Shown here in pieces: positions 2,654 to 42,376 of a DNA stretch of 64,000 nucleotides (position 1 is the stretch's first letter; each line of letters opens with the position of its first letter). The translations under genes were made by a program, and so were the position numbers. Source of the DNA: Escherichia coli (GTDB lineage: Bacteria; Pseudomonadota; Gammaproteobacteria; Enterobacterales; Enterobacteriaceae); NCBI RefSeq assembly GCF_024298765.1, contig NZ_CP101210.1. The stretch is one strand, 5' to 3'. The notes under the pieces are model-generated. The model did not search any database. It was given only the letters and a program-made list of their open reading frames with translations, and was not told where the DNA came from.

Positions 2654-3526
2654 TCAGAAGAAAATCCAGTTCCATACAGCGCGGGCAACAGAGACCACCG
2701 AGTCACGGACGGCACGCAGAACCGTGCGTGCAACAGAGGCAATACAGACGCTCTCCGCCGTGTCAAATATCCGGTCCACCGCACCGGTAAACTGTTCACG
2801 GGCCTGAGACCGGACAGATTCCGTGCGCAGCTCGTCCTGCAGGCGGGTCATCAGGGGACTGGCGGCATGGTCGGGAAGCGCTGTCATGAGCGCACTGACC
2901 AGCGTATCCAGTTCCCAGCCGGTGCAGGCCGATACGGCCACAACCGGATGTACGGGCCGGAACAGCCGGAATACCGCATCTGTTTTCTCACGAATGTTCT
3001 GTGCCTGTGCGGGAGAAGGCTGAATACCGGCCATATCCCATTCATGGCAGGGCTCCGTTTTGTCGGCCTGCGTCACCACAAACAGCACCCGCTGATGTCC
3101 CCGGTGCAGGATGTGTCGCCAGAAATACTCATCCACAGACAGGGCGCGGTCATCGGCTTTAATCAGCCACAGCACCAGGTCCAGTTCGGGCAGAATGTCA
3201 CGGTACAGGGCTTCATACTCTGCATCCCTGTCCCGGCTCTCGCCCACCCCGGGCAGGTCAGTGATAACCATGCTGTGACCGTGGCCACTCAGACGGAAGC
3301 GCCGCACTTCCCGGGTGCCGGCGTGAACATCACTGACCGGGGTGACCTCCCCCTGAAACAGCGCATTACAGAGTGAGGATTTACCGGCCCCGCTTTTACC
3401 CATAATGCCAATCACGGGTTCGTGACTGGTGAGTTTGCGCAGATGTTCCAGGATGTGACGGGAAAGTGAGTAAGGCAGGGAAGAAAGTGGTTTTTCAATT
3501 GCCTCAATGGCATCAGACGGATTCAT
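2654..3526 (-). CDS. yeeP: YeeP/YkfA/YfjP-family GTPase (CP4-type prophage-island protein)
   Basis: ORF 2654..3565; P-loop GIMGKSGAGKSS and DLPGVGE switch motif; position immediately upstream of flu as in CP4-44. Start at the internal MNPSD Met (3526) is my preference; the ORF-track start is 3565. Confidence 0.75.
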   Translation of the reverse strand: MNPSDAIEAIEKPLSSLPYSLSRHILEHLRKLTSHEPVIGIMGKSGAGKSSLCNALFQGEVTPVSDVHAGTREVRRFRLSGHGHSMVITDLPGVGESRDRDAEYEALYRDILPELDLVLWLIKADDRALSVDEYFWRHILHRGHQRVLFVVTQADKTEPCHEWDMAGIQPSPAQAQNIREKTDAVFRLFRPVHPVVAVSACTGWELDTLVSALMTALPDHAASPLMTRLQDELRTESVRSQAREQFTGAVDRIFDTAESVCIASVARTVLRAVRDSVVSVARAVWNWIFF

Positions 3527-3789
3527 ACATGTATTCCCGGTGAAAAAAGACAAAACCCCGCGCACCGGAAAGGTGGCGGGGGATTCACGGAGATAATATC
3601 TGTCTGAAATTATTTAGAATGCACCTGGTGCACTGCAAAGGAAAGGCAATATTCCGTTCCTCCTCCTTGTCGTGAATACCCCAGGTATCTCACAATGTAC
3701 ACCGACTTACTCCGGGGCTGCCTGAACCACAAGATTGCTGTAGAATTGCCCCCAATGATTCAGGTCCAAACCAGGAAAATGGATTAAAA

Positions 3790-5346
3790 ATGACAAGTAT
3801 TCAACAACGAGCAGAACTGCACCGCCAGATATGGCAAATTGCCAATGATGTCAGAGGTTCTGTTGACGGATGGGATTTTAAGCAATACGTTCTGGGCGCG
3901 CTTTTCTACCGTTTTATCAGCGAAAATTTTTCCAGCTATATTGAAGCCGGTGATGACAGTATCTGTTATGCGAAACTGGATGACAGCGTAATTACTGATG
4001 ACATTAAAGACGATGCCATCAAAACTAAAGGCTACTTCATCTACCCCAGTCAGCTTTTCTGCAACGTAGCTGCGAAAGCAAATACCAATGACAGACTGAA
4101 TGCAGATTTAAACAGTATCTTCGTTGCTATCGAAAGTTCTGCTTACGGTTACCCTTCAGAAGCTGACATCAAAGGTTTGTTTGCTGATTTCGATACCACC
4201 AGTAACCGCCTGGGTAACACCGTTAAGGATAAAAATGCCCGCCTGGCTGCGGTTCTGAAAGGGGTTGAAGGGTTAAAACTTGGTGACTTCAACGAACATC
4301 AGATTGACCTGTTCGGCGATGCCTATGAGTTCCTGATTTCTAACTATGCGGCGAATGCTGGTAAGTCAGGCGGCGAGTTTTTTACACCGCAGCACGTCTC
4401 CAGGCTGATTGCACAACTGGCTATGCACGGGCAGACCAGCGTTAACAAAATCTACGACCCGGCAGCAGGTTCCGGTTCGCTGTTGTTGCAGGCTAAAAAA
4501 CAGTTTGATGACCATATCATCGAAGAAGGTTTTTTTGGTCAGGAAATCAACCATACGACCTATAACCTGGCGCGTATGAACATGTTTTTGCACAACATCA
4601 ACTACGACAAGTTTGATATCAAGTTGGGCAATACGCTGACTGAGCCGCACTTCAGAGATGAAAAACCGTTTGATGCCATCGTTTCTAACCCGCCGTATTC
4701 GGTGAAATGGATTGGCAGCGATGACCCGACGCTGATTAACGATGAACGTTTTGCCCCGGCTGGCGTCCTGGCCCCCAAATCCAAAGCTGACTTTGCGTTT
4801 GTACTACATGCGCTGAACTATCTTTCGGCCAAAGGTCGTGCTGCGATTGTCTGCTTCCCGGGTATTTTTTACCGTGGCGGCGCAGAGCAGAAAATCCGTC
4901 AATATCTGGTCGACAATAACTATGTCGAAACCGTGATTTCACTGGCACCGAACCTGTTCTTTGGCACCACCATTGCCGTAAACATTCTGGTGCTGTCTAA
5001 ACATAAAACGGATACCAACGTTCAGTTTATTGACGCCAGCGAACTGTTCAAAAAAGAGACTAACAACAATATCCTGACCGATGCCCATATCGAACAGATT
5101 ATGCAGGTATTTGCCAGCAAGGAAGATGTTGCTCATCTGGCAAAATCTGTCGCGTTCGAAGCCGTTGTCGCGAATGACTATAACCTGTCGGTGAGCAGCT
5201 ATGTGGAAGCGAAAGATAACCGCGAAATTATCAATATTGCTGAACTGAATGCAGAGCTGAAAACCACGGTCAGCAAAATCGACCAGTTGCGTAAAGATAT
5301 TGATGCAATTGTGGCTGAAATTGAAGGCTGCGAGGTGCAGAAATGA
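3790..5346 (+). CDS. hsdM: Type I restriction-modification N6-adenine DNA methyltransferase subunit HsdM (type IC-like)
   Basis: 518 aa; SAM-binding motif DPAAGSGS and catalytic motif SNPPYS; stop overlaps the hsdS start (ATGA). Confidence 0.9.
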
Positions 5347-29173: not shown

Positions 29174-32113
29174 ATGAGTAATTTTAATTTTCTAACAGAC
29201 ATCAGCCCTGAACTCGCTCAATTTGGTAAAAGTGCCGAGCTGTATTACCATGATGATAAGCAGGTAGCACTAGTGAAACTTAGGTGTTTTACTGAAGTAG
29301 TCGTTGGGGAAATTTATTCACGTTTATCGCTAACCCCACCTGTTCGTGATGATTTATATAATCGACTGCGCAGCTACGAATTCAAGGACGTTGTCAGTGA
29401 TAAGGGAATCTGGGCCAAATTAGATGTATTGCGACATAAAGGTAACAAAGCCGCCCACTCTAGCAATGGTTCAGACGAGATTTCCCTCAATGAAACACTC
29501 TGGTTAATCAAAGAAGCTTATTTAGTCGCCCGTTGGTATGCTCAAGCTATTCTCAATAAGCCTATCACTCCGCCAGAGTTTGTTGATCCGGTAAAACCTA
29601 TCGATCATACATCTCGCTTAGAAGCAGAGTTAGAACGGCAACGTCAAGAACTCAATAAACGAGAGGCTGAATTAAAGACCCAGCTTGCTGATAATAGTGA
29701 TAAATATCAACAACAGACGAGTGAGCTAATAGCTCAACTAGACGAAAAAAACGACACACTTTCCAATGTAAAAAAAGAGCAAGCACTATTACAGATTGAA
29801 CTTGAACAAAAACAAAAAGATCTAGTCGCTTCACAACAAGCCTTCTTTGATTACAGGACGCGTGAAGAGTTTAAACAAGCTAGTATTTCATCAGCTTCAA
29901 GCTTTGATCTTGATATGGAAGTGACGCGCCGAAATATTGATATATTTGATTGCTTTGAAGGAGTAAGTTTAACTAAAGGTCAAAACCAAATAGTTAAGCA
30001 AATAAATGAGTTTCTAACCGATACCAAACAAAACGTATTTTTACTTAATGGTTATGCAGGTACAGGTAAAACATTTATAACTAAAGGAATTACTCAGTAC
30101 CTAGAAAGAATTGGTCGTGAATTCGCTATTATGGCCCCGACGGGGAAAGCCGCGAAAGTGATATCAGACAAAACAATGCAACCTGCCAGCACTATTCACC
30201 GCGTGATATACAATTACGACAACGTGAAAGAGTACAAAGTTGACGGTGTGGAAGGGTCTGAAACTTATCGTTGCTATGCTGACCTTAAAGTCAATGTAGA
30301 TACTGCCGAAGCTGTTTATATAATTGATGAAGCGTCAATGGTTTCTGACAGATATTCCGATGGTGAGTTTTTTCGTTTTGGGAGCGGATATTTATTAAAA
30401 GACTTGCTCAAGTACATAAATATTGACCACAACGATCATAATAAGAAAGTTATTTTTATTGGTGATAATGCACAGTTGCCACCTGTTGGAATGAATACGT
30501 CACCAGCGCTAGATGCCAGTTACCTTAAAGAAAATTATCAAGTCGCTGTGGCTTCAGGGCACTTGACTGAAGTTGTTCGTCAAAAAGGTGATAGTGGTGT
30601 TTTGAACAATGCTGCCATGTTGCGTGACGGTTTAGAGCAAAATCTTTTCAATAAACTGAAATTTGAAGTTAATGATCATGATGTATTTAATTTGTCCTCG
30701 GAAAATCTACTTAGCACTTATCTAGACTCATGTGATAGAAAAGTTAGCCGTACAGGAGAAAGTATTATTATTGCTTCTTCAAACCGACAAGTAGCTGAGT
30801 ATAACCGTTTGGTTAGAGAGTACTTCTTTACTGGTCAACAGCAAATGGTCGCGGGAGATAAAGTCATTTCGGTAGCAAATCACTATCGAGCAGACGCTTG
30901 TATTACCAATGGTGAATTTGGAATGATCAAGGAAGTACTATCTCCTCATTCTGAGTTGATTAGTGTTGACATTAGCGTCAAAGGTGACACTGGTGACATG
31001 GTTAAGCGAAAAGTAAATCTGAGTTTTAGGGATGTGATTCTAGGCTTTCGCAACGACTACGGTGAACCATTCTTCTTTGAAGCCAAAATTGTAGAAAACC
31101 TACTTTACAATGATCAGCCGACCTTATCGTCAGATGAGCACAAAGCACTCTATGTTCACTTTTTAAATCGACACCCAGAACTGAGACGTAAAGGTAATGA
31201 ACAAAAGCTTAGAATTGCATTATTGCAAGATCCTTATTTCAATGCTTTTAAACTTAAGTTTGGTTATTCCATTACTGGACACAAAGCACAGGGTAGCGAA
31301 TGGAAAACTGTTTTCTTACAGTGTCAAACACACCAAAAAGCCTTAACTAAAGATTACTTCCGCTGGTTATACACCGCTATAACGAGAACTTCTGGCATCC
31401 TGTATGTAATGAATCCACCTCAGTTGCGCTTAGGAGATGGAATGAAAATAGCAGGAGCGTACCAACCCAAAGCAGTAAACCTAGACAATTCTGCTCCTGA
31501 AGGCGTTGAGGTTGTGCGACCAAGTACCGAAGCAACGAACTCAGTAGCCACAGCGAAGTTTGATTTTCAGACTGACATCCCGCAACTTAAAAAGCTATAC
31601 CAACTTGTTGATGCATGTATTGAAGGTACAGGGATTACTGTAGTGGATGTCCTTCATTATAACTATCAAGATCGTTACATCTTGCAGCGCGGGAATGAGC
31701 AGGCTTCGATAAGTTTCAATTACAAGGGTAACTGGAAAGTGTCTGGCGTAAAGAGCATTACTCAAGATGGGTTCGATGTTGAACTCATGGCTTTGCTTGG
31801 TCAATTAGAAGGTACTTTGCTCGATGTACCTGAGCCTTCAAAGGATACTCAGTTCCATTTTTCAGAGCCATTCTTAGAAGAGTTTTATCTAAATGTAATG
31901 GATCAAATCAACAGTGTTGGAGCTGATATAAGCAAAATTGAATCTCGTTCATTTTGTGAAAGATATGCATTTGTTAAAGGCAATGAGTTGGCGGTAATTG
32001 AGTTTTGGTACAACAAGTCTAGCCAGTTTACTAAAGTTCAACCTATGCCTCAGCTTAGTAATTCCACAAGGCTCATTGACGAAATAATATGTCAAATAGG
32101 TGTGCTTCTATGA
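29174..32113 (+). CDS. Large SF1B (RecD/Pif1/Dda-like) helicase with an uncharacterised N-terminal helical domain and a coiled-coil linker; candidate defence effector/sensor
   Basis: 979 aa. Helicase motifs: Walker A NGYAGTGKTF, IMAPTGKAAKV, Walker B IIDEASMV, motif III VIFIGDNAQLPPV, motif V/VI SITGHKAQGSEWKTVFL. N-terminal ~130 aa contains LDVLRHKGNKAAHS (possible DUF4145/HEPN-like R-x7-H); residues ~140-230 are a heptad-rich E/Q/K/L segment. No relaxase motifs. Confidence 0.75.
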   Translation: MSNFNFLTDISPELAQFGKSAELYYHDDKQVALVKLRCFTEVVVGEIYSRLSLTPPVRDDLYNRLRSYEFKDVVSDKGIWAKLDVLRHKGNKAAHSSNGSDEISLNETLWLIKEAYLVARWYAQAILNKPITPPEFVDPVKPIDHTSRLEAELERQRQELNKREAELKTQLADNSDKYQQQTSELIAQLDEKNDTLSNVKKEQALLQIELEQKQKDLVASQQAFFDYRTREEFKQASISSASSFDLDMEVTRRNIDIFDCFEGVSLTKGQNQIVKQINEFLTDTKQNVFLLNGYAGTGKTFITKGITQYLERIGREFAIMAPTGKAAKVISDKTMQPASTIHRVIYNYDNVKEYKVDGVEGSETYRCYADLKVNVDTAEAVYIIDEASMVSDRYSDGEFFRFGSGYLLKDLLKYINIDHNDHNKKVIFIGDNAQLPPVGMNTSPALDASYLKENYQVAVASGHLTEVVRQKGDSGVLNNAAMLRDGLEQNLFNKLKFEVNDHDVFNLSSENLLSTYLDSCDRKVSRTGESIIIASSNRQVAEYNRLVREYFFTGQQQMVAGDKVISVANHYRADACITNGEFGMIKEVLSPHSELISVDISVKGDTGDMVKRKVNLSFRDVILGFRNDYGEPFFFEAKIVENLLYNDQPTLSSDEHKALYVHFLNRHPELRRKGNEQKLRIALLQDPYFNAFKLKFGYSITGHKAQGSEWKTVFLQCQTHQKALTKDYFRWLYTAITRTSGILYVMNPPQLRLGDGMKIAGAYQPKAVNLDNSAPEGVEVVRPSTEATNSVATAKFDFQTDIPQLKKLYQLVDACIEGTGITVVDVLHYNYQDRYILQRGNEQASISFNYKGNWKVSGVKSITQDGFDVELMALLGQLEGTLLDVPEPSKDTQFHFSEPFLEEFYLNVMDQINSVGADISKIESRSFCERYAFVKGNELAVIEFWYNKSSQFTKVQPMPQLSNSTRLIDEIICQIGVLL

Positions 32114-33534
32114 ATGAGCCAGCTAATCGTACAGTAAATAATTTGAGAAAGAGCGGAGACCTGCAAGGGGCTTGGGAGTTTGGTTTTCAAGCGTTGCAGG
32201 CAGCTCCCCAAGATACTTACTTGAAAGGTGCTTTATTTTGGGTGTGTTATGAGTTTCTTAAGCACCAGCTTGAAAATCTAAATAAGCGAGCGAGTTCTTC
32301 AAACAACTATCGTCCTACTGATTTTGAATTTGAGCAAATAGAGAACTTGCTGCAAACCATAGTAAATTTAGATATTGCTACTGGCGGCCTAGAGTACAAA
32401 ATGCTGCTGGTTCAGTTTAAGAAGAGTTTGGAATGGTTTCCAACCTTGATTCACCTTGTGCTTCGACATCAAACTGTACTATTTGATGATGAGGCTAAAA
32501 CACCTTTTCAAGCTGAAAAAGGTGAAGTGCCAAGTTTGATGCTCTCAACAGCACGCCAAGTGGCGAGTGCATGGCTTAGAGCACGAGAGTATTGGCATCT
32601 AGATCTTAACCAAGTGATGGCATTTATTAACCAAACACGCGAGCAAGCCTCTGACACTAAACATATGATGTGGCTTGATTACGACCAAGCGAAGTGCCTT
32701 GTTGTTGCGGGCCAATACGATCAGGCTCGCGAACTCATTCTACCCATTTTAAGAAAGAAGCAAAAAGAGTCTTGGGCTTGGGGAGCGTTGGCTGCTACTT
32801 ATTCAAAACAAGATCAGCGTTTAGCAATGAAGTTTTTTGCTAGGGGAATAGTATCCGCACATGACGTTACTTTTAGTTTACGTTTATTACAGGGAATTAT
32901 TCCTTTATTACTTGCAAATCAACAGCAAGCTGAAGCCTCAATGTGCCTAAAAACGGCTATTGCGGCTTATCAAGCCCATGGGTGGAAGCTAAAGCAAGAG
33001 CTAGAACAGCTATCTATGCAGGCTTGGTATGATTCTGGTGTCGATGAGAAGCAACTGAGTCCTTTTTTAAACTCTATTTCTCACGACGCTTTAAATTACT
33101 TGCATGGGCCGATGGAGAAGGTTGTTGCTATCGTAGAGAATATCCATAAATCCGGTAAAGGCTTTCAAGTATTCGTAAATAAGTCGACATCACTATCAGT
33201 TCGCATGGGGGTTCATAAAGGTAAGCAGAAACCTCAGGCTGGTGACTATGTCGAGCTATCCGTAGCGAGTGTTGATGGAAACAAAGAAGTAGTAGCTTCC
33301 TCATCGTCCAAGCAAGTAGATATGGCTGATGTTTCGTATGTAGAGGGTACGCTTCGAATAGCACCCAAAGGCTTCGGATTTGTCGAGGATACTTTTGTTC
33401 CTCCCTTTGTTATAGGTAATTTAAAAAATGAAACAAAAGTCAGAGCACTCCGTATCATGAGTTGGGACAAATCTAAAGCTCGCCACAACTGGAAAGCGAT
33501 TAAGTTAACGGAACTAAATTTTAATGAAGACTAA
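32110..33534 (+). CDS. Uncharacterised protein with N-terminal TPR-like helical repeats and C-terminal cold-shock/OB-fold-like region, translationally coupled to the helicase
   Basis: Start at MNEPANRT (ATG 32110, overlapping the helicase stop; ORF-track start 32089 rejected); C-terminal ...GTLRIAPKGFGFVEDTFVPPFVI resembles the GFGF cold-shock/S1 motif. Confidence 0.65.
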   Translation: MNEPANRTVNNLRKSGDLQGAWEFGFQALQAAPQDTYLKGALFWVCYEFLKHQLENLNKRASSSNNYRPTDFEFEQIENLLQTIVNLDIATGGLEYKMLLVQFKKSLEWFPTLIHLVLRHQTVLFDDEAKTPFQAEKGEVPSLMLSTARQVASAWLRAREYWHLDLNQVMAFINQTREQASDTKHMMWLDYDQAKCLVVAGQYDQARELILPILRKKQKESWAWGALAATYSKQDQRLAMKFFARGIVSAHDVTFSLRLLQGIIPLLLANQQQAEASMCLKTAIAAYQAHGWKLKQELEQLSMQAWYDSGVDEKQLSPFLNSISHDALNYLHGPMEKVVAIVENIHKSGKGFQVFVNKSTSLSVRMGVHKGKQKPQAGDYVELSVASVDGNKEVVASSSSKQVDMADVSYVEGTLRIAPKGFGFVEDTFVPPFVIGNLKNETKVRALRIMSWDKSKARHNWKAIKLTELNFNED

Positions 33535-35846: not shown

Positions 35847-36735
35847 TTTATAGTCCTTACTTTATAAAATTCACAGGAAGAGGGAATTACGTAAATACTG
35901 AGAGTACATAAACGCCGTACCACGGCATTAATAAACGAGGTAACCAGCAGTACAGACAACCTGATAAAACTGTTTTGTATTACCGCATCGCTGTAACAAG
36001 GTAATACTTCAGAATTCAGTGAGGCTCTCTTAAACAGAGGACCAGTAATAATTACAATGGCAAAAACACACCTCAATATAATTGAATTTAAGAAAGCACC
36101 ATTCAATCACTTACAGGAAGTAATCTGATCTTCACAAAAGTCAGCTATCGAATAGCCACAGGCAACACCGCTATTGATACCCCACACACCATAAGAAGAT
36201 TATTCCATACAGAAAAAATTATATTTACCCATACTTATAAACTGTAACGGAGCTATGACGTACGAACTAAAGACACTACACTCTAATAGAGTTCTGGTAC
36301 CTAACCAGTGTTAAATACGAACCAGACATACATTCTATGGATTAATTTTCTCAATATTACGCTATGAGTGTAGTAACATAATTTACACCACATACACCAC
36401 CACACTGTAGTTAGTATATGGGGAGACATTACGATAAAAAGAGATAAGTTATACCACAGATACCACCACACAATACCATAACTCCCATTAATAATACTAA
36501 TTAACCTAAATTATTTATTGAATACGAAAACAATGAAGGTCCCACCTCACCTCAGACTAAAGCCGACAATATCCTGAGCAACACTCTATCCAATAGTAAA
36601 TAGTGGTTACACCAGTTATATTTACTGACTGACCTGTACCAGAGTTTTCTAATACAACAACGCTGACATGGTAAAGGCATTAGTCTCCTCCGCAAGTAGC
36701 AGAGGAGACTATATGTTACTCAACGATTAAGTCGT

Positions 36736-38187
36736 TCAGAGGTCAAAGTTAGGTGCGACACACAACGTTTTTCCCTCAATAACCGGTACAACTCTGTTTT
36801 GTTCATACAGTAAATCCAGTAACCAGTTGATTTTATCCTTTTTCCGGAAACGGTTCGGACCACGCTGTAAAATATCATTTTTTTTCATACAGGGGATCCC
36901 CTTCTCAATGCAATAGCTTTTTATCCAGTTGAAAAGTTCAAGCTCCTCTGGAATGAGTCGCACAGGTACGGTCAGGGCAGGGTTGTCAAAAGTTAACGGA
37001 TTAGACAACCGCACATACTCATTACCGTACCATATTGCTAATTCTCTCGCCATTTCTGCAGTGTAAGGGGAAATGTCCCCCTCTTCACCGCTCGAATGGT
37101 GAATAAGTCCTGCCAGTCTTGCCATATACTCTGCATTTTTAGCAGCATATTCCCGGCAATGTCTTAAAGGCCCCAATCCCCCCAGCTTCGATTCCACATC
37201 GTTGTAATAATCCGTCCAGATTCTGGCAGCCTGAGGAGAAAAGTGAAGGCAACGTCGTTCACCACTCATCGCCAGATTTTCATCAATAAGCTCATTGATC
37301 CTCTGTTCAAACAAATCCTGATACTGTGATGAATAATTATCTCCGGTTATTATCCTTGTCCCCTGCGTTGATGTTGGTTGACACATCAAAAACCTTGCAT
37401 GATGTCCTGACGTTTTCACAAGTTCTTTTTTTCGCGTACAAAAACCTTTCTGGTAAACATCAGGCTGAATCATCACCGATACCGTCAGTCTTGGATCCTT
37501 CAAAATAATTCCGGGAGATGATTTCCTGTCGATGAAAAGAGAACCACCATCCCACAAAGAGTTAAGTATTCCAAGTTTACTCATTGCCCGGCCATCAAAA
37601 ATTATTCCTCCTTCACTGGATACAAGAGCAAAAGAGCGATTGCTGTCGGAATAATATTTTAACATTCCCTCTATCGTTGTCTCATTGAAAATTGTCCGGC
37701 GTATCTGCGGCGGAACAGGACATTTATTCAGATGTCTTTTAAGCTCTGACTCTGTTGCCTTACAATCTTTACCGGCGCGAATTTCTTTATGCAATTTTGA
37801 CTCCAGTGCTTTTTGCTTTTGCTCCCATATTTCCTTTTCTGTACTGTAATTCTCAACCAGTTTCGCGTATTCTTCCGCCAGGGCTTCATCCCTGAGATAA
37901 AATGCTTTCATAAACACTTTATCCACGGTCGTTTTCCTTTCACCGGAATCAGCCAGAATCAGAGAGTAAAGATTAACAGGCCCACGTAAATTTCCAGGTC
38001 TGCACACGTCAATCTGATTCTGACAGGCACTTGAGAACGCTGTTAATGCGGATGTCGCCACCATAGCCAAAGGTGCCTGTGTATTTTTTTGAGTTTCAAT
38101 TATTGCATTTCTCACCAGCGGTGGTAGTGCATATACCGGATAAGGATTTTCTGGTGCAAGTAAGCACATAAAAGCCTCTCTTTTCAT
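36736..38187 (-). CDS. YfjI-like protein (DUF3987 family), CP4/P4-type island conserved gene
   Basis: 483-aa ORF (alternative start at MCLLAPENPYP, 38169); synteny alpA-yfjI-yfjJ on the same strand as the tRNA, as in CP4-57. Confidence 0.5.
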   Translation of the reverse strand: MKREAFMCLLAPENPYPVYALPPLVRNAIIETQKNTQAPLAMVATSALTAFSSACQNQIDVCRPGNLRGPVNLYSLILADSGERKTTVDKVFMKAFYLRDEALAEEYAKLVENYSTEKEIWEQKQKALESKLHKEIRAGKDCKATESELKRHLNKCPVPPQIRRTIFNETTIEGMLKYYSDSNRSFALVSSEGGIIFDGRAMSKLGILNSLWDGGSLFIDRKSSPGIILKDPRLTVSVMIQPDVYQKGFCTRKKELVKTSGHHARFLMCQPTSTQGTRIITGDNYSSQYQDLFEQRINELIDENLAMSGERRCLHFSPQAARIWTDYYNDVESKLGGLGPLRHCREYAAKNAEYMARLAGLIHHSSGEEGDISPYTAEMARELAIWYGNEYVRLSNPLTFDNPALTVPVRLIPEELELFNWIKSYCIEKGIPCMKKNDILQRGPNRFRKKDKINWLLDLLYEQNRVVPVIEGKTLCVAPNFDL

Positions 38188-38399: not shown

Positions 38400-38645
38400 C
38401 CCGGTCTTTTTCCTTTCTCAGGAATCAGCCAGAACCATAGTGTAAATATTAACAGGCCCACGTAAATTTCCAGGTCTGCACACGTCAATCTGATTCTGAC
38501 AGGCAATTGACATCGCTGTTAATAATGATGTGGTAGTCATAGCCAGAGATGCTTTTTCATTGTGTTGAGTTTCAATTATTGCATTTCCAGTCATTGATGG
38601 TTGCGCATATACTGGATACGGAGTATCCGGTTTGATGTAAGACAT
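38400..38645 (-). pseudogene. Diverged partial duplicate of the 5' end of the yfjI-like gene
   Basis: 38400-38645 is ~85-90% identical to 37935-38187, including a 57-bp identical core; 75-aa ORF MSYIKPDTPYPVYAQPSMTGNAIIETQ... parallels the yfjI-like N-terminus then diverges. Confidence 0.6.
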
Positions 38646-38750
38646 AAATATTTCCTTTTTTCGTAATAACTTTCGGTTATAGCAGCTATTTCCGCTACAA
38701 TAGCAACAATAGCTGCTATACAGACTGGATATACTGAAAATACAGACAGT

Positions 38751-38999
38751 TCATCTGGTCTGTATCCAGCAAAGAAGGTCACTTAACAACCATCCGCAAG
38801 ATTTCTTTCCGATAGACTTACGTGGTGGAAATTTTCCCTCCCGTTCAAGTTTCCACGCTTGTGTACGAGAAATTGACGTGATCTCATATCGTTCCTTTTC
38901 ACGTACCAGTCTGTCGCATTCAATCCCATAAGCTTTCAAAATGACCAGACGCTGTTCATCTGTTAATGGAAGCCACATACTACCCTCCTGATATATCAA
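38751..38999 (-). CDS. alpA: AlpA-family phage/island transcriptional regulator (MerR-like HTH)
   Basis: 82-aa ORF; C-terminal ...ITSISRTQAWKLEREGKFPPRKSIGKKSCGWLLSDLLCWI matches the AlpA pattern. Confidence 0.6.
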   Translation of the reverse strand: MIYQEGSMWLPLTDEQRLVILKAYGIECDRLVREKERYEITSISRTQAWKLEREGKFPPRKSIGKKSCGWLLSDLLCWIQTR

Positions 39000-39669: not shown

Positions 39670-41307
39670 ATGGTAACTCGGACAATGCAACAAAAGTATC
39701 AGTATGATCGTGTTTTATCCGGCGAACTCCACCCATTCCCTGGCATATACGAGGCGGTTTCCGAACAAATCCTTTTGCTCATTTTTAAAGCACGTCAACT
39801 ATATCAGGATCCAGAATATCGCCCCTGGTTTGAAGAACAGCACAGAGTACTCTCTGCATTACGTGCCAATACAGAGCTCCTGAGAATCTTTAGAGAACAA
39901 AGAAGCGCTGAAGAACCAAAGCTTACTATTGAAGAGTCTACCTCCCCCCAACCCACTCCTTCTGCTCTTACAGATGCGCTTAATGTGATGTGCCATTTAT
40001 ACAATGGTTTTGATGAAGGAAATATCAGTCTGAAAACCTGGGGGGCGATGCAAGAGGTACAGACAACATCAACCTTTATCAGCCCAGGACCGAGAACCTG
40101 GAAAACACCTGAACTGGCAAAGTTTGTAGGAGATGATTTATTTAATATTCTGACTGAATGTAAGGCCTGGAGTTCACCAATTCCAGCAGAAACCCGACAG
40201 GGGTATTGCCATCAGGATCTGTCTGTTGCACACTCCTGCACCTCAGAGTTACTGGCACACCTGAATCAATATCATGAAATTGATGAATCAGCAATACTTG
40301 CCAGAGTTATTGGTATAACAGTTAACGGATTCTACAAGAAAAATAATACAGACCTTCCAGAATGGCTATCCCCCTTTAAAGAGGAACATAAAATATTCAA
40401 AGATTGTCCGGAGCAAAATACCGGGGATGTAATCAGACGGAAAGAACAACTGTTGAAAACAGGACGTACAGAATTCGTGAATAATTTGTGTCGGGTCGCC
40501 AACTGGTATGAAATTGAGTCAATATACGATGAATACGTCCGTCTTTATGCCAATGAAATCATTGACTGGTTCAACAAAACCATGAAGTATTTTAAACCAA
40601 CAGATTTTATCCGATATACATGGAAATTCGCAACAGTTACTCCGGATAAAGATACAGAAACCGGGCATACAACTGCATGGGAAAAGGATTATTGCCAGAT
40701 AACCATACAACGTGATGAACTTCTGAGGTTGATTCACACTAATACCCTTCAGGATGCTGTAATTTATCTTTGTCATTGTCTGCAGGAGAAATACAAGAAA
40801 TCATCCCAGAATGAGACAGAGTTTCCAGGAATAAAACCTCCGGCATCAGAGAGTGAAATTAATATAACAGATAATTTTGAATTTCATTCTCTTCTGGAGC
40901 TAAGTAAAGATAATGAGAAGCGGCTGGAAACATTTCAAAAATGGTATGAAAAAAATAAAGTTTTGTTAGAAAGTCATAAACAAAAACGAACAGAGAAGAT
41001 TGACGTTGCCGTACGACTTGTAGGGCTGAAAGCCTATGATCTGCATGAAGGGATTCCGGATAGTCCAAAACGAAAAGTTAAAGATGGCATAAATGAAGAC
41101 ATCAAAGCCGATACCAGTTTACGCCTGTCAAAGACAAATATAAGTGATACGTCGCTAAACCGTTATCGCCGCACTGTTAAGGAGATTATCAATAACGAAA
41201 TCGACGCATTCCTGTTGGAACAGAAGAAAAAAAATAAAAGATTTCCCTACAGTGAAGATAGAGATGTGATTCGCCCTTTATGGGGAAAATGCCTGACCGG
41301 GCAGTAG
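39670..41307 (+). CDS. Hypothetical protein, 545 aa, no recognisable domain; AT-rich island cargo
   Basis: Long ORF after a ~670-bp AT-rich, purine-skewed upstream region; no motifs recognised. Confidence 0.5.
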   Translation: MVTRTMQQKYQYDRVLSGELHPFPGIYEAVSEQILLLIFKARQLYQDPEYRPWFEEQHRVLSALRANTELLRIFREQRSAEEPKLTIEESTSPQPTPSALTDALNVMCHLYNGFDEGNISLKTWGAMQEVQTTSTFISPGPRTWKTPELAKFVGDDLFNILTECKAWSSPIPAETRQGYCHQDLSVAHSCTSELLAHLNQYHEIDESAILARVIGITVNGFYKKNNTDLPEWLSPFKEEHKIFKDCPEQNTGDVIRRKEQLLKTGRTEFVNNLCRVANWYEIESIYDEYVRLYANEIIDWFNKTMKYFKPTDFIRYTWKFATVTPDKDTETGHTTAWEKDYCQITIQRDELLRLIHTNTLQDAVIYLCHCLQEKYKKSSQNETEFPGIKPPASESEINITDNFEFHSLLELSKDNEKRLETFQKWYEKNKVLLESHKQKRTEKIDVAVRLVGLKAYDLHEGIPDSPKRKVKDGINEDIKADTSLRLSKTNISDTSLNRYRRTVKEIINNEIDAFLLEQKKKNKRFPYSEDRDVIRPLWGKCLTGQ

Positions 41308-41393: not shown

Positions 41394-41990
41394 TTATGCG
41401 GCTTTTCCATTAACAGATTCGGCCACAAGAACAACACCGTGTTTGTTTCGATCAGGATGTTCACTCCAGATTTCTGATTCAGGAATACTTTCCCCATCAT
41501 AGCAGATCCGATCACCATCAAACGAATAATACCGTGCGGAATCTGTATCTAAGATAAACACCTTAAAATTCGTTGAACGACGCGCTATATGCTGCCAGAG
41601 GGCTTTACCTCCTTCATATTGCTCGTTATCACTTAATAGTATAACGCCTGCTTTTGTGGCTATTGTTTCATAAACAAACGTAGCAAGGCTAACATCACGT
41701 ACAGCGCCATCGACAACAATCCCTTCAATCTGAGCAACGTCCTGTTCTTCCCAGAATTTCCGGACAAACACCCCTTCAAGCTGTGAACGACGCTGAAGCT
41801 CCAGAGTGGCAACAACCTTATGGCGAATATCACCATCAATAACAGAAGGTGCAGCTTCGATTACCGCAGCGAACGGAGTCTTTGGATCCCAGATGATCTG
41901 GTAAAGCACACCCTGAATAGTTACTCCATCCAGTATCGAAAAACGACGAGCTACAGTAGCAGGGGAGTAAGACATTGGAATGACAGCCAT
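41394..41990 (-). CDS. Hypothetical protein, 198 aa, no recognisable domain; occupies the tRNA-proximal slot where an integrase is expected
   Basis: ORF ~310 bp from the thrW 3' end; no tyrosine-recombinase motifs. Confidence 0.45.
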   Translation of the reverse strand: MAVIPMSYSPATVARRFSILDGVTIQGVLYQIIWDPKTPFAAVIEAAPSVIDGDIRHKVVATLELQRRSQLEGVFVRKFWEEQDVAQIEGIVVDGAVRDVSLATFVYETIATKAGVILLSDNEQYEGGKALWQHIARRSTNFKVFILDTDSARYYSFDGDRICYDGESIPESEIWSEHPDRNKHGVVLVAESVNGKAA

Positions 41991-42300: not shown

Positions 42301-42376
42301 TGGTGCCGATAATAGGAGTCGAACCTACGACCTTCGCATTACGAATGCGCTGCTCTACCAACTGAGCTATATCGGC
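42301..42376 (-). tRNA. thrW: tRNA-Thr (anticodon CGU)
   Basis: Reverse complement gccgatatagctcagttggtagagcagcgcattcgtaatgcgaaggtcgtaggttcgactcctattatcggcacca: cloverleaf with anticodon loop attCGTaat, T-loop ggttcgactcc, encoded CCA. Confidence 0.95.

Follow-up and report, generated by a model that had tools for sequence, protein, structure and literature searches.

Rolling-circle replicons share a compact layout, exemplified by the phiX174 gpA origin, the double-strand origin (dso) of pMV158 RepB, and the gpII/intergenic region of the filamentous phages. In each, a Rep protein with HUH and YxxK motifs adjoins a noncoding region that carries a short, conserved, AT-rich site in the orientation of the gene; the conserved core lies in variable surroundings, and a separate helicase gene is found nearby. 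In elements of the ICEBs1 type, the nickase and its oriT can support autonomous replication as well as transfer once the element has been excised. A similar layout is found in a chromosomal island of Escherichia coli, in a 64-kb stretch of DNA that is referred to here as the window. A gap of 889 bp (35847–36735) separates the stop codon of a yfjI-like gene from the ATG of a YagK/YfjJ-like gene, both on the minus strand. Within the gap lies a 22-nt element, AATTTAGGTTAATTAGTATTAT, that recurs upstream of homologues of the YagK/YfjJ-like protein, itself a predicted HUH nuclease. This predicted nuclease and its gene are called the HUH protein and the HUH gene below.

The gap had been singled out in a first-pass annotation for its lack of open reading frames (ORFs), its strand skew, its ccaccaca/acaccaca motifs, and a hairpin, and a structured noncoding RNA (ncRNA), a recombination site, or a decayed gene had been proposed in explanation. 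The observation is confirmed by the present analysis, and the interpretation is partly supported. The proposal of a DNA site is supported, in a different form, by the 22-nt element, which had gone unnoticed and which is strictly linked to the HUH gene; the repeats and the hairpin are not that site.

The HUH protein and the element upstream of its gene

The protein encoded downstream of the gap contains the sequence motifs FRIDFAY, GLHIHFI, and LSYLAKQ, and the residues of its HUH and YxxK motifs (H86, H88, Y156, and K159) are near-invariant among 29 homologues. Its AlphaFold model is confident (pLDDT 90), and HUH nuclease domains were among the best matches to this model in a structure comparison. 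Matches to the Pfam families Rep_ORF2-G2P and YagK_YfjJ_C remained below threshold, and sequence searches of NCBIfam and the PDB were uninformative. Judged by its motifs and predicted fold, the YagK/YfjJ-like protein is a HUH nuclease.

Homologues with 34–70% identity to this protein were found in Erwinia, C. freundii, Yersinia, C. braakii, Limnobaculum, and metagenome contigs, each with at least 430 nt of ORF-free DNA upstream. The sole sequence that these upstream regions have in common with the window is the element of about 22 nt, of which the C. braakii copy has diverged. The element is AT-rich, with the consensus AATT(A/T)AGGTTAATTA(G/A)TATTAT, which may also be written (g)AAT-TAAGGTTAATTA[AG]TATTAT, and a weakly conserved GRAGT lies on its 3′ side. 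An exact scan for TWAGGTTAATTARTATTAT in one genome per species, covering about 100,000 species, returned 42 loci. Thirteen of these have a HUH homologue downstream on the same strand, 103–992 nt away (E. albertii, two Citrobacter, Buttiauxella, Edaphovirga, three Gilliamella, two Dechloromonas, and one mis-binned contig), and a fourteenth is cut by a contig end; the remaining matches fall mostly in unrelated AT-rich taxa, with the HUH gene absent. Protein identity to the E. coli HUH protein is ~36% in Gilliamella and ~30% in Dechloromonas.

When the upstream regions were aligned in register, both flanks of the element proved unrelated even between moderately close taxa, and its edges were sharp. 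The element always lies upstream of the HUH gene and co-oriented with it, at a distance from the ATG that ranges from 103 to 1132 nt across taxa, which indicates that it is not tied to the start codon. Two homologues apart (see below), it is present in every relative with enough upstream sequence, and it is kept with the HUH gene where yfjI has been swapped for another gene. The contiguous conservation of about 22 nt with sharp edges, the fixed orientation, the free spacing, and the persistence across protein divergence large enough to have wiped out every other noncoding resemblance fit best with the cis site of a DNA-processing enzyme, and the adjoining HUH nuclease is the obvious candidate for that enzyme.

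These properties suggest a model in which the 22-nt element serves the HUH enzyme as nick site or origin in rolling-circle replication or transfer. It is the reading favored here, though tentatively and with considerable reserve. The single-tyrosine endonuclease would recognize and nick the element, and the island, once excised, would use the nicked element as an origin, either to replicate as a rolling circle or to be transferred as a single strand; YfjI would be a candidate for the accompanying helicase. The element would also mark the start of the HUH-gene module, and the promoter of the gene may overlap it; a promoter that overlaps the origin is common in Rep/origin pairs. The core TA(G/A)TATTAT resembles the nick motif NANTATTAC of the circo-, nano-, and geminivirus Reps, which is a resemblance only and not a test of the model.

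Several observations weigh against a nick or origin site. A recognizable copy of the element is absent from the K-12 YfjJ and the Acinetobacter plasmid homologues, and the scan demanded an exact match, which inflates the apparent invariance. Among 20 taxa, no conserved stem-loop surrounds the element (local fold z-scores are about 0, and the folds differ), and a test for adjacent repeats (iterons) was significant in only three. No abrupt change of skew occurs at the element. The Gp2-like family, to which the HUH protein belongs by its RefSeq name, need not be a family of vegetative Reps and may act in mobilization or recombination instead, since the 4.76-kb Acinetobacter lwoffii plasmid pALWEK1.14 (L129) carries a Rep_3 initiator and a recombinase beside the gene of a 347-aa Gp2-like HUH protein with HYH and Y..K motifs (3387–4430); the element is missing there. 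HUH homologues occur in 103 plasmid records, of which 80 are from Acinetobacter and 78 are typed as mobilizable, and the Gp2-like protein is not recognized as a relaxase by MOB typing. Finally, the island in the window has no integrase near tRNA-Thr and is broken by insertion sequence (IS) elements, so that the site may be a relic here.

The strongest alternative is that the element represents a regulated promoter or operator, for example one that depends on AlpA or is autoregulated by the HUH protein. TATTAT would then be the −10 hexamer and the remaining gap the long 5′ leader of a HUH operon, and the C-poor sequence of this leader might escape Rho termination. The invariable position and orientation of the element suit a promoter, as does its distance of 103–145 nt from the ATG in compact relatives, which is a normal leader length. 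TATTAT agrees with TATAAT at five of six positions, GRAGT lies at roughly start-site distance, and alpA is almost always adjacent. A sigma-70 scan of the coding strand in four taxa gave a single match at the element, in Gilliamella, that uses TAATAT of the element and a −35 in the nonconserved flank; however, the scan was blank at the element in the window, Erwinia, and C. gillenii, and no conserved −35 was found to accompany the conserved −10-like TATTAT. Moreover, the ~22 nt are conserved in one piece and not as two hexamers, the gene can be as far as 1.1 kb away, and persistence at 30% protein identity across classes, with all else randomized, is unusual for promoters and operators. HUH nick sites, by comparison, outlast promoters over far greater protein divergence. 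A promoter or operator is regarded as a possible explanation of the element, albeit a less likely one than a nick site.

A wider version of the nick-site model is also conceivable. The HUH protein and the element could form a previously unrecognized nickase/origin pair that drives rolling-circle replication or single-strand transfer of AlpA-type defence islands and satellites across the Proteobacteria, including relatives of the Pseudomonas islands that are reported to be transduced by a jumbo phage, with the T/G-rich spacer of E. coli as a functional single-strand region (a lagging-strand origin or a recombination-prone strand) and not filler. Drawn from sequence comparison, this extension is speculative and is considered doubtful. 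In the Pseudomonas islands, which are integrated at tmRNA, an inovirus Gp2-like protein, IntY, and AlpA have been described as likely core genes (preprint 10.1101/2024.08.29.610337); the same work gives the Gp2-like protein no function. A description of the element was not found in a literature search of incomplete coverage, and the family names returned annotation mentions only.

Some further details of the sequence around the element were noted. Directly on its 3′ side (alignment columns 33–57, ~36455–36480, minus strand), a 12-nt tandem repeat was seen by eye in most E. coli variants (GTTATGTTRTCT twice, GTTATGTTATCT/GTTATGTTGTCT). In its place, GTGGTAT-type repeats occur in the window variant, and three AGTRGAAGWATC-like copies follow the element in C. 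freundii; the iteron-like look of these repeats is without statistical support. The mis-binned contig of the scan, JAIJJM010000108.1 (L113), is from a metagenome-assembled genome labelled Collinsella and carries both the element and a HUH gene, the first 79 residues of which are 92% identical to homologue P0025 of the E. coli protein; its actinobacterial label is probably binning contamination. A rudivirus Rep target that would start with AATTTAGG was not confirmed in the literature and was not used as evidence.

Anatomy, composition, and coding potential of the gap

Variation within E. coli was assessed in gaps from RefSeq genomes and 57 metagenome contigs found with a 20-mer, a collection that yielded 32 unique full-length gaps of 785–1012 nt. 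Nucleotide diversity is 0.01–0.05 over the first ~280 nt past yfjI, 0.09–0.15 in the middle, where gap columns reach 40–80%, and 0.05–0.12 over the last ~340 nt. In two strains, yfjI is swapped for an unrelated ‘hypothetical’ gene of ~610 aa (168–2003 in L074 and 252–2075 in L075) with a divergent helix-turn-helix regulator. Homology to the window begins there at gap position ~195–203, still ahead of the Gp2-like gene, and 450–530 nt of different noncoding DNA lie between the ~610-aa gene and the same 22-nt element. This arrangement suggests a module exchange with a junction ~20–30 nt upstream of the element. Replacement of yfjI leaves the HUH gene with everything from gap position ~200 onward, so that the first ~220 nt of the gap are assigned to yfjI and the remainder to the downstream gene. 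A yfjI-linked block, the element, and a spacer can be told apart in the gap. In CP4-57 of K-12, the gap between yfjI and yfjJ is just 152 bp and the element is absent.

The ~640 nt that separate the HUH start codon from the element would constitute an untranslated, lineage-specific spacer. It is 565–795 nt long and T/G-rich in 23 variants from E. coli and E. albertii, ~940–1130 nt long with little skew in Limnobaculum and two metagenome lineages, and A/C-rich in the distant taxa, where it measures 103–134 nt. Deletions of 100–250 nt have removed parts of it in the O157, M11, and L013 variants. The E. coli spacer is regarded as largely dispensable and appears to be fast-evolving.

The near absence of ORFs reported in the first-pass annotation was upheld. 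Three ORFs of 47–96 aa are found mechanically in the gap, of which the 47-aa ORF alone recurs in other variants; the 96-aa ORF of the window, which overlaps the HUH start, is not conserved among them. RefSeq places no feature inside the gap in the source genome, and the homologous stretch is equally free of annotated genes in all of the ~1,590 E. coli records that carry it. A 42-codon ORF near yfjI (Table 1) shows mostly nonsynonymous changes, is cut short by a stop at codon 3 in both L005 and L010, and has lost its ATG to ATA in L039; a small protein was rejected on the grounds of the nonsynonymous pattern and of the breaks in divergent variants. Indel lengths show no excess of multiples of three. 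Both a gene and a decayed gene in the gap were rejected on the combined absence of a conserved long ORF, an annotated homologue, and a triplet indel bias; the decayed gene suggested by the earlier annotation is not supported.

These data also bear on a more general view, which takes the entire gap for neutral debris or a decayed gene, conserved only through recent common ancestry. Identity in the gap (87–93%) is below that of the flanking genes (93–99%), indels are numerous, diversity at each end tracks that of the adjacent gene, and most of the spacer can be lost, all of which would be expected of debris. Such an origin fails to explain why a 22-nt element amid unrelated flanks should be preserved in both Beta- and Gammaproteobacteria next to a protein of 30% identity, and neither a remnant ORF nor a homologue or triplet pattern speaks for a former gene. 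This view is accordingly held to be very improbable.

The strand skew first described in the gap is pronounced. On the plus strand, (A+C−G−T)/N is 0.190, compared with a mean of 0.015 (standard deviation 0.048) for the window, and it is the most extreme in the 64 kb. Of the 2,525 sliding windows, only 4 show a skew as high, and each of the twelve top-ranking ones listed either overlaps the gap region or borders on it. The coding (minus) strand of the gap is 38% T, 26% A, 22% G, and 15% C, with five other variants alike. The spacer of relatives has the opposite skew or little of it and there is no step at the element, which indicates that the T/G skew is specific to the E. coli lineage and is not a property of the system. 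A strand-displacement footprint starting from the element was rejected as its source for the same two reasons and because the four-fold sites of the flanking genes, yfjI and the HUH gene, already favor G over C (+0.28 to +0.44).

The ccaccaca/acaccaca motifs are present as annotated, with CCACCACA occurring twice and ACACCACA once, and form part of an imperfect 28-nt direct repeat. They are not the conserved site: the repeat sits in the indel-rich, most variable part of the gap, its first copy has been lost from the O157 and M11 variants, and its second is restricted to window-like variants. A tandem-repeat search of the gap found no array.

The hairpin beside the yfjI stop codon is real and exceeds the 9-bp stem originally noted (Table 1). 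It starts 24 nt past the stop, and on the coding strand its one mismatch forms a G.T wobble. Four haplotypes occur among the 32 variants; in three of them, G.T(U) wobbles keep the coding-strand stem fully paired, which weakly favors a role in the yfjI transcript, where the hairpin probably acts as a 3′-end or stability hairpin. It is not flagged by the terminator scan, and with no T-run behind it, it is not a canonical intrinsic terminator. Elsewhere, the inverted repeat TATTACC..GGTAATA of the spacer (alignment columns 666–699) underwent one double change from T-A to G-C, in L053, and the changes seen in a small hairpin, GCCGT-GGT-ACGGC, are pair-breaking singles only.

A long structured ncRNA, G/U-rich on the coding strand and engaged in island regulation or defence, would be compatible with the G.U-tolerant substitutions of the yfjI hairpin, with the strand skew conserved among E. 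coli variants, with the presence of the region in ~29% of E. coli genomes, and with a coding-strand fold z-score of −4.3. This score derives from only 20 shuffles, and the opposite strand reaches −3.0 with the same number. A covariance-model (Rfam) scan of 7 kb found nothing relevant in the gap, its one match being a spurious microRNA model (E 0.44) outside it. RNAalifold, applied to 23 representative spacers, returned a covariation term of −2.0 kcal/mol and compensatory changes in 2 of 94 pairs, in a comparison whose power is limited by low divergence. The large indels and 7–15% diversity in the middle of the gap, the short spacers of opposite composition in distant relatives, and the lack of a terminator on either strand within the gap also argue against an ncRNA, and the idea, raised in the first-pass annotation, is considered highly improbable. 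The small RNA Esr41/EcOnc was rejected as a candidate: Esr41 is described as an OI-43 locus near ter, flanked by z1181 and z1182, its placement in the gap failed, and the window has no matching terminator.

Equally remote is a theta origin of the type found in phage-inducible chromosomal islands (PICIs) and Staphylococcus aureus pathogenicity islands (SaPIs), with YfjI-bound iterons flanking an AT-rich region 3′ of a helicase/primase gene, for although the gap follows a DUF3987 helicase-like gene directly in an AlpA-type island, has a GC content of 36%, and contains short repeats, it has no iteron array or tandem repeats, its sole repeat family is a nonconserved pair, its conserved part follows the HUH gene and not yfjI when the two are separated, and the K-12 yfjI is without such a gap.

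Genomic setting and distribution

The gap is part of a degraded chromosomal island beside tRNA-Thr (42301–42376) and proA; the features in and around it are collected in Table 1. The YfjI protein also matches PHROG family 2373, ‘DNA helicase’ (E 1.7e-63). IS903B and IS1 lie beyond the HUH gene. No integrase is present in the island in the window, including the position beside tRNA-Thr where O157 (L002) has one, so the island looks immobile here.

Table 1. Coordinates of features in the gap and of its neighboring genes (positions in the window)
Feature	Position	Strand	Remarks
YagK/YfjJ-like HUH gene, 187 aa	35283–35846	minus	RefSeq ‘inovirus-type Gp2 protein’; downstream neighbor of the gap
Lineage-specific T/G-rich spacer, ~640 nt	35847–36490	minus	rich in indels; ORFs not conserved; RNA structure unsupported
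Inverted repeat TATTACC..GGTAATA in spacer	35978–36006	minus	up to 12 bp in other variants; window copy with mismatch
Imperfect 28-nt direct repeat holding ccaccaca/acaccaca motifs	36378–36405 and 36444–36471	minus	two copies, not conserved
22-nt element	36491–36512	minus	single copy in window, 0 expected by chance; proposed HUH recognition/nick site
yfjI-linked 3′ block, ~223 nt	36513–36735	minus	conserved among yfjI-type islands; unrelated sequence where yfjI is replaced
42-codon ORF MPLPCQRC...	36552–36680	minus	ATG behind GGAGG; 30 of 32 variants; probably not coding
yfjI hairpin	36681–36711	minus	inverted-repeat search; 13-nt arms (36681–36693 and 36699–36711), 5-nt loop
YfjI-family DUF3987 gene, 483 aa, helicase-like	36736–38187	minus	Pfam DUF3987, E 1.5e-85; RefSeq ‘YfjI family protein’
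75-aa DUF3987 fragment	38418–38645	minus	just upstream of the full yfjI gene
alpA	38751–38999	minus	

Homologous gap sequence was found in 1,586 of 5,426 complete E. coli genomes (~29%; 1,570 by megablast count). O157:H7 has two modules: a first copy near 3.4 Mb, followed by a TOTE primase gene, and a second yfjI–gap–HUH module, ~79% identical, at ~1.10 Mb in FRIK804 (L068, record 1,102,422–1,103,376), followed by a type I Zorya system. A search of phage DNA with the gap gave no match, matches in plasmid DNA were confined to E. coli records, several of which are chromosome-sized ‘plasmids’, and a contig search with YfjI peptides gave no confirmed relative.

Islands of this type combine alpA, a yfjI-like helicase gene, and the YagK/YfjJ-like gene with defence cargo such as TOTE or Zorya, and a candidate cis site next to the HUH nuclease opens a direct test of how they replicate or move after excision. 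The element also provides a compact sequence marker for finding such modules in genomes. The skew, repeats, and hairpin hold only modest interest as first described; the bulk of the 889 bp appears to be dispensable spacer.

Additional observations concern the neighboring sequences. The 75-aa ORF upstream of yfjI matches only the first 45 positions of DUF3987 and looks like an N-terminal duplicate or fragment; in several strains (L002, L004, and L007) it is annotated as an intact small coding sequence or as a pseudogene. Between this fragment and alpA lies a near-perfect inverted repeat of ~19 bp, AUAGCAGCUAUUGUUGCUA...UAGCGGAAAUAGCUGCUAU (38679–38719, minus strand), which could be a terminator or an operator and which accounts for the spurious microRNA match. 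Two hypothetical proteins without a Pfam match, of 545 aa (39670–41307, plus strand) and 198 aa (41394–41990, minus strand), are encoded between alpA and tRNA-Thr. On the other side, between IS1 and IS903B, two genes with TOTE conflict-system domains (29495–33534, plus strand) point towards the HUH gene and encode an 872-aa PIF1/RecD-like helicase with a TBP-TOTE domain and a 474-aa protein with DUF7017 and S1CSD-TOTE-2; in other strains (L002 and L071), a TOTE primase gene lies directly 3′ of the HUH gene.

Comparison with known systems

AlpA- and Q-type antitermination promoters resemble the locus in the adjacent alpA and in a conserved promoter-proximal element ahead of a lengthy untranslated stretch that contains hairpins. 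They differ from it in that no conserved −35 or terminator is found here, and conservation across classes is far above what is expected of an operator. The SaPI and PICI origins 3′ of pri-rep share with the gap a position after a helicase/primase-like gene in an AlpA-controlled island; here, in contrast, an iteron array is lacking, and it is the HUH gene, not the helicase gene, that the conserved site accompanies.

The origins of circo-, nano-, and geminiviruses, in which NANTATTAC sits in a hairpin loop accompanied by iterons, are likewise served by a single-tyrosine HUH protein with YxxK, and the core of the element agrees with their consensus at eight of nine positions. However, conservation of the element runs 13 nt further 5′ (AATTAAGGTTAAT), and no SF3 helicase is fused to the HUH protein. 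Since the stem-loop is not conserved and iterons lack statistical support, the element was not filed as an origin of the circular Rep-encoding single-stranded (CRESS) type. NicK and oriT of ICEBs1 offer another parallel, in that a HUH-type nickase and a nearby cis site reside in a chromosomal island, and many plasmid homologues of the present protein are typed as mobilizable. In contrast to ICEBs1, the protein belongs to a different family and is not called a relaxase by MOB typing, and the island contains no conjugation genes.

The rolling-circle replicons provide the closest match in layout. The element differs from their origins in residing in a chromosomal AlpA-type island and not in a plasmid or phage and in lying up to 1.1 kb from its gene. 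A HUH nuclease with its cognate cis site is a known kind of system, of which the protein and element described here would be a fresh instance.

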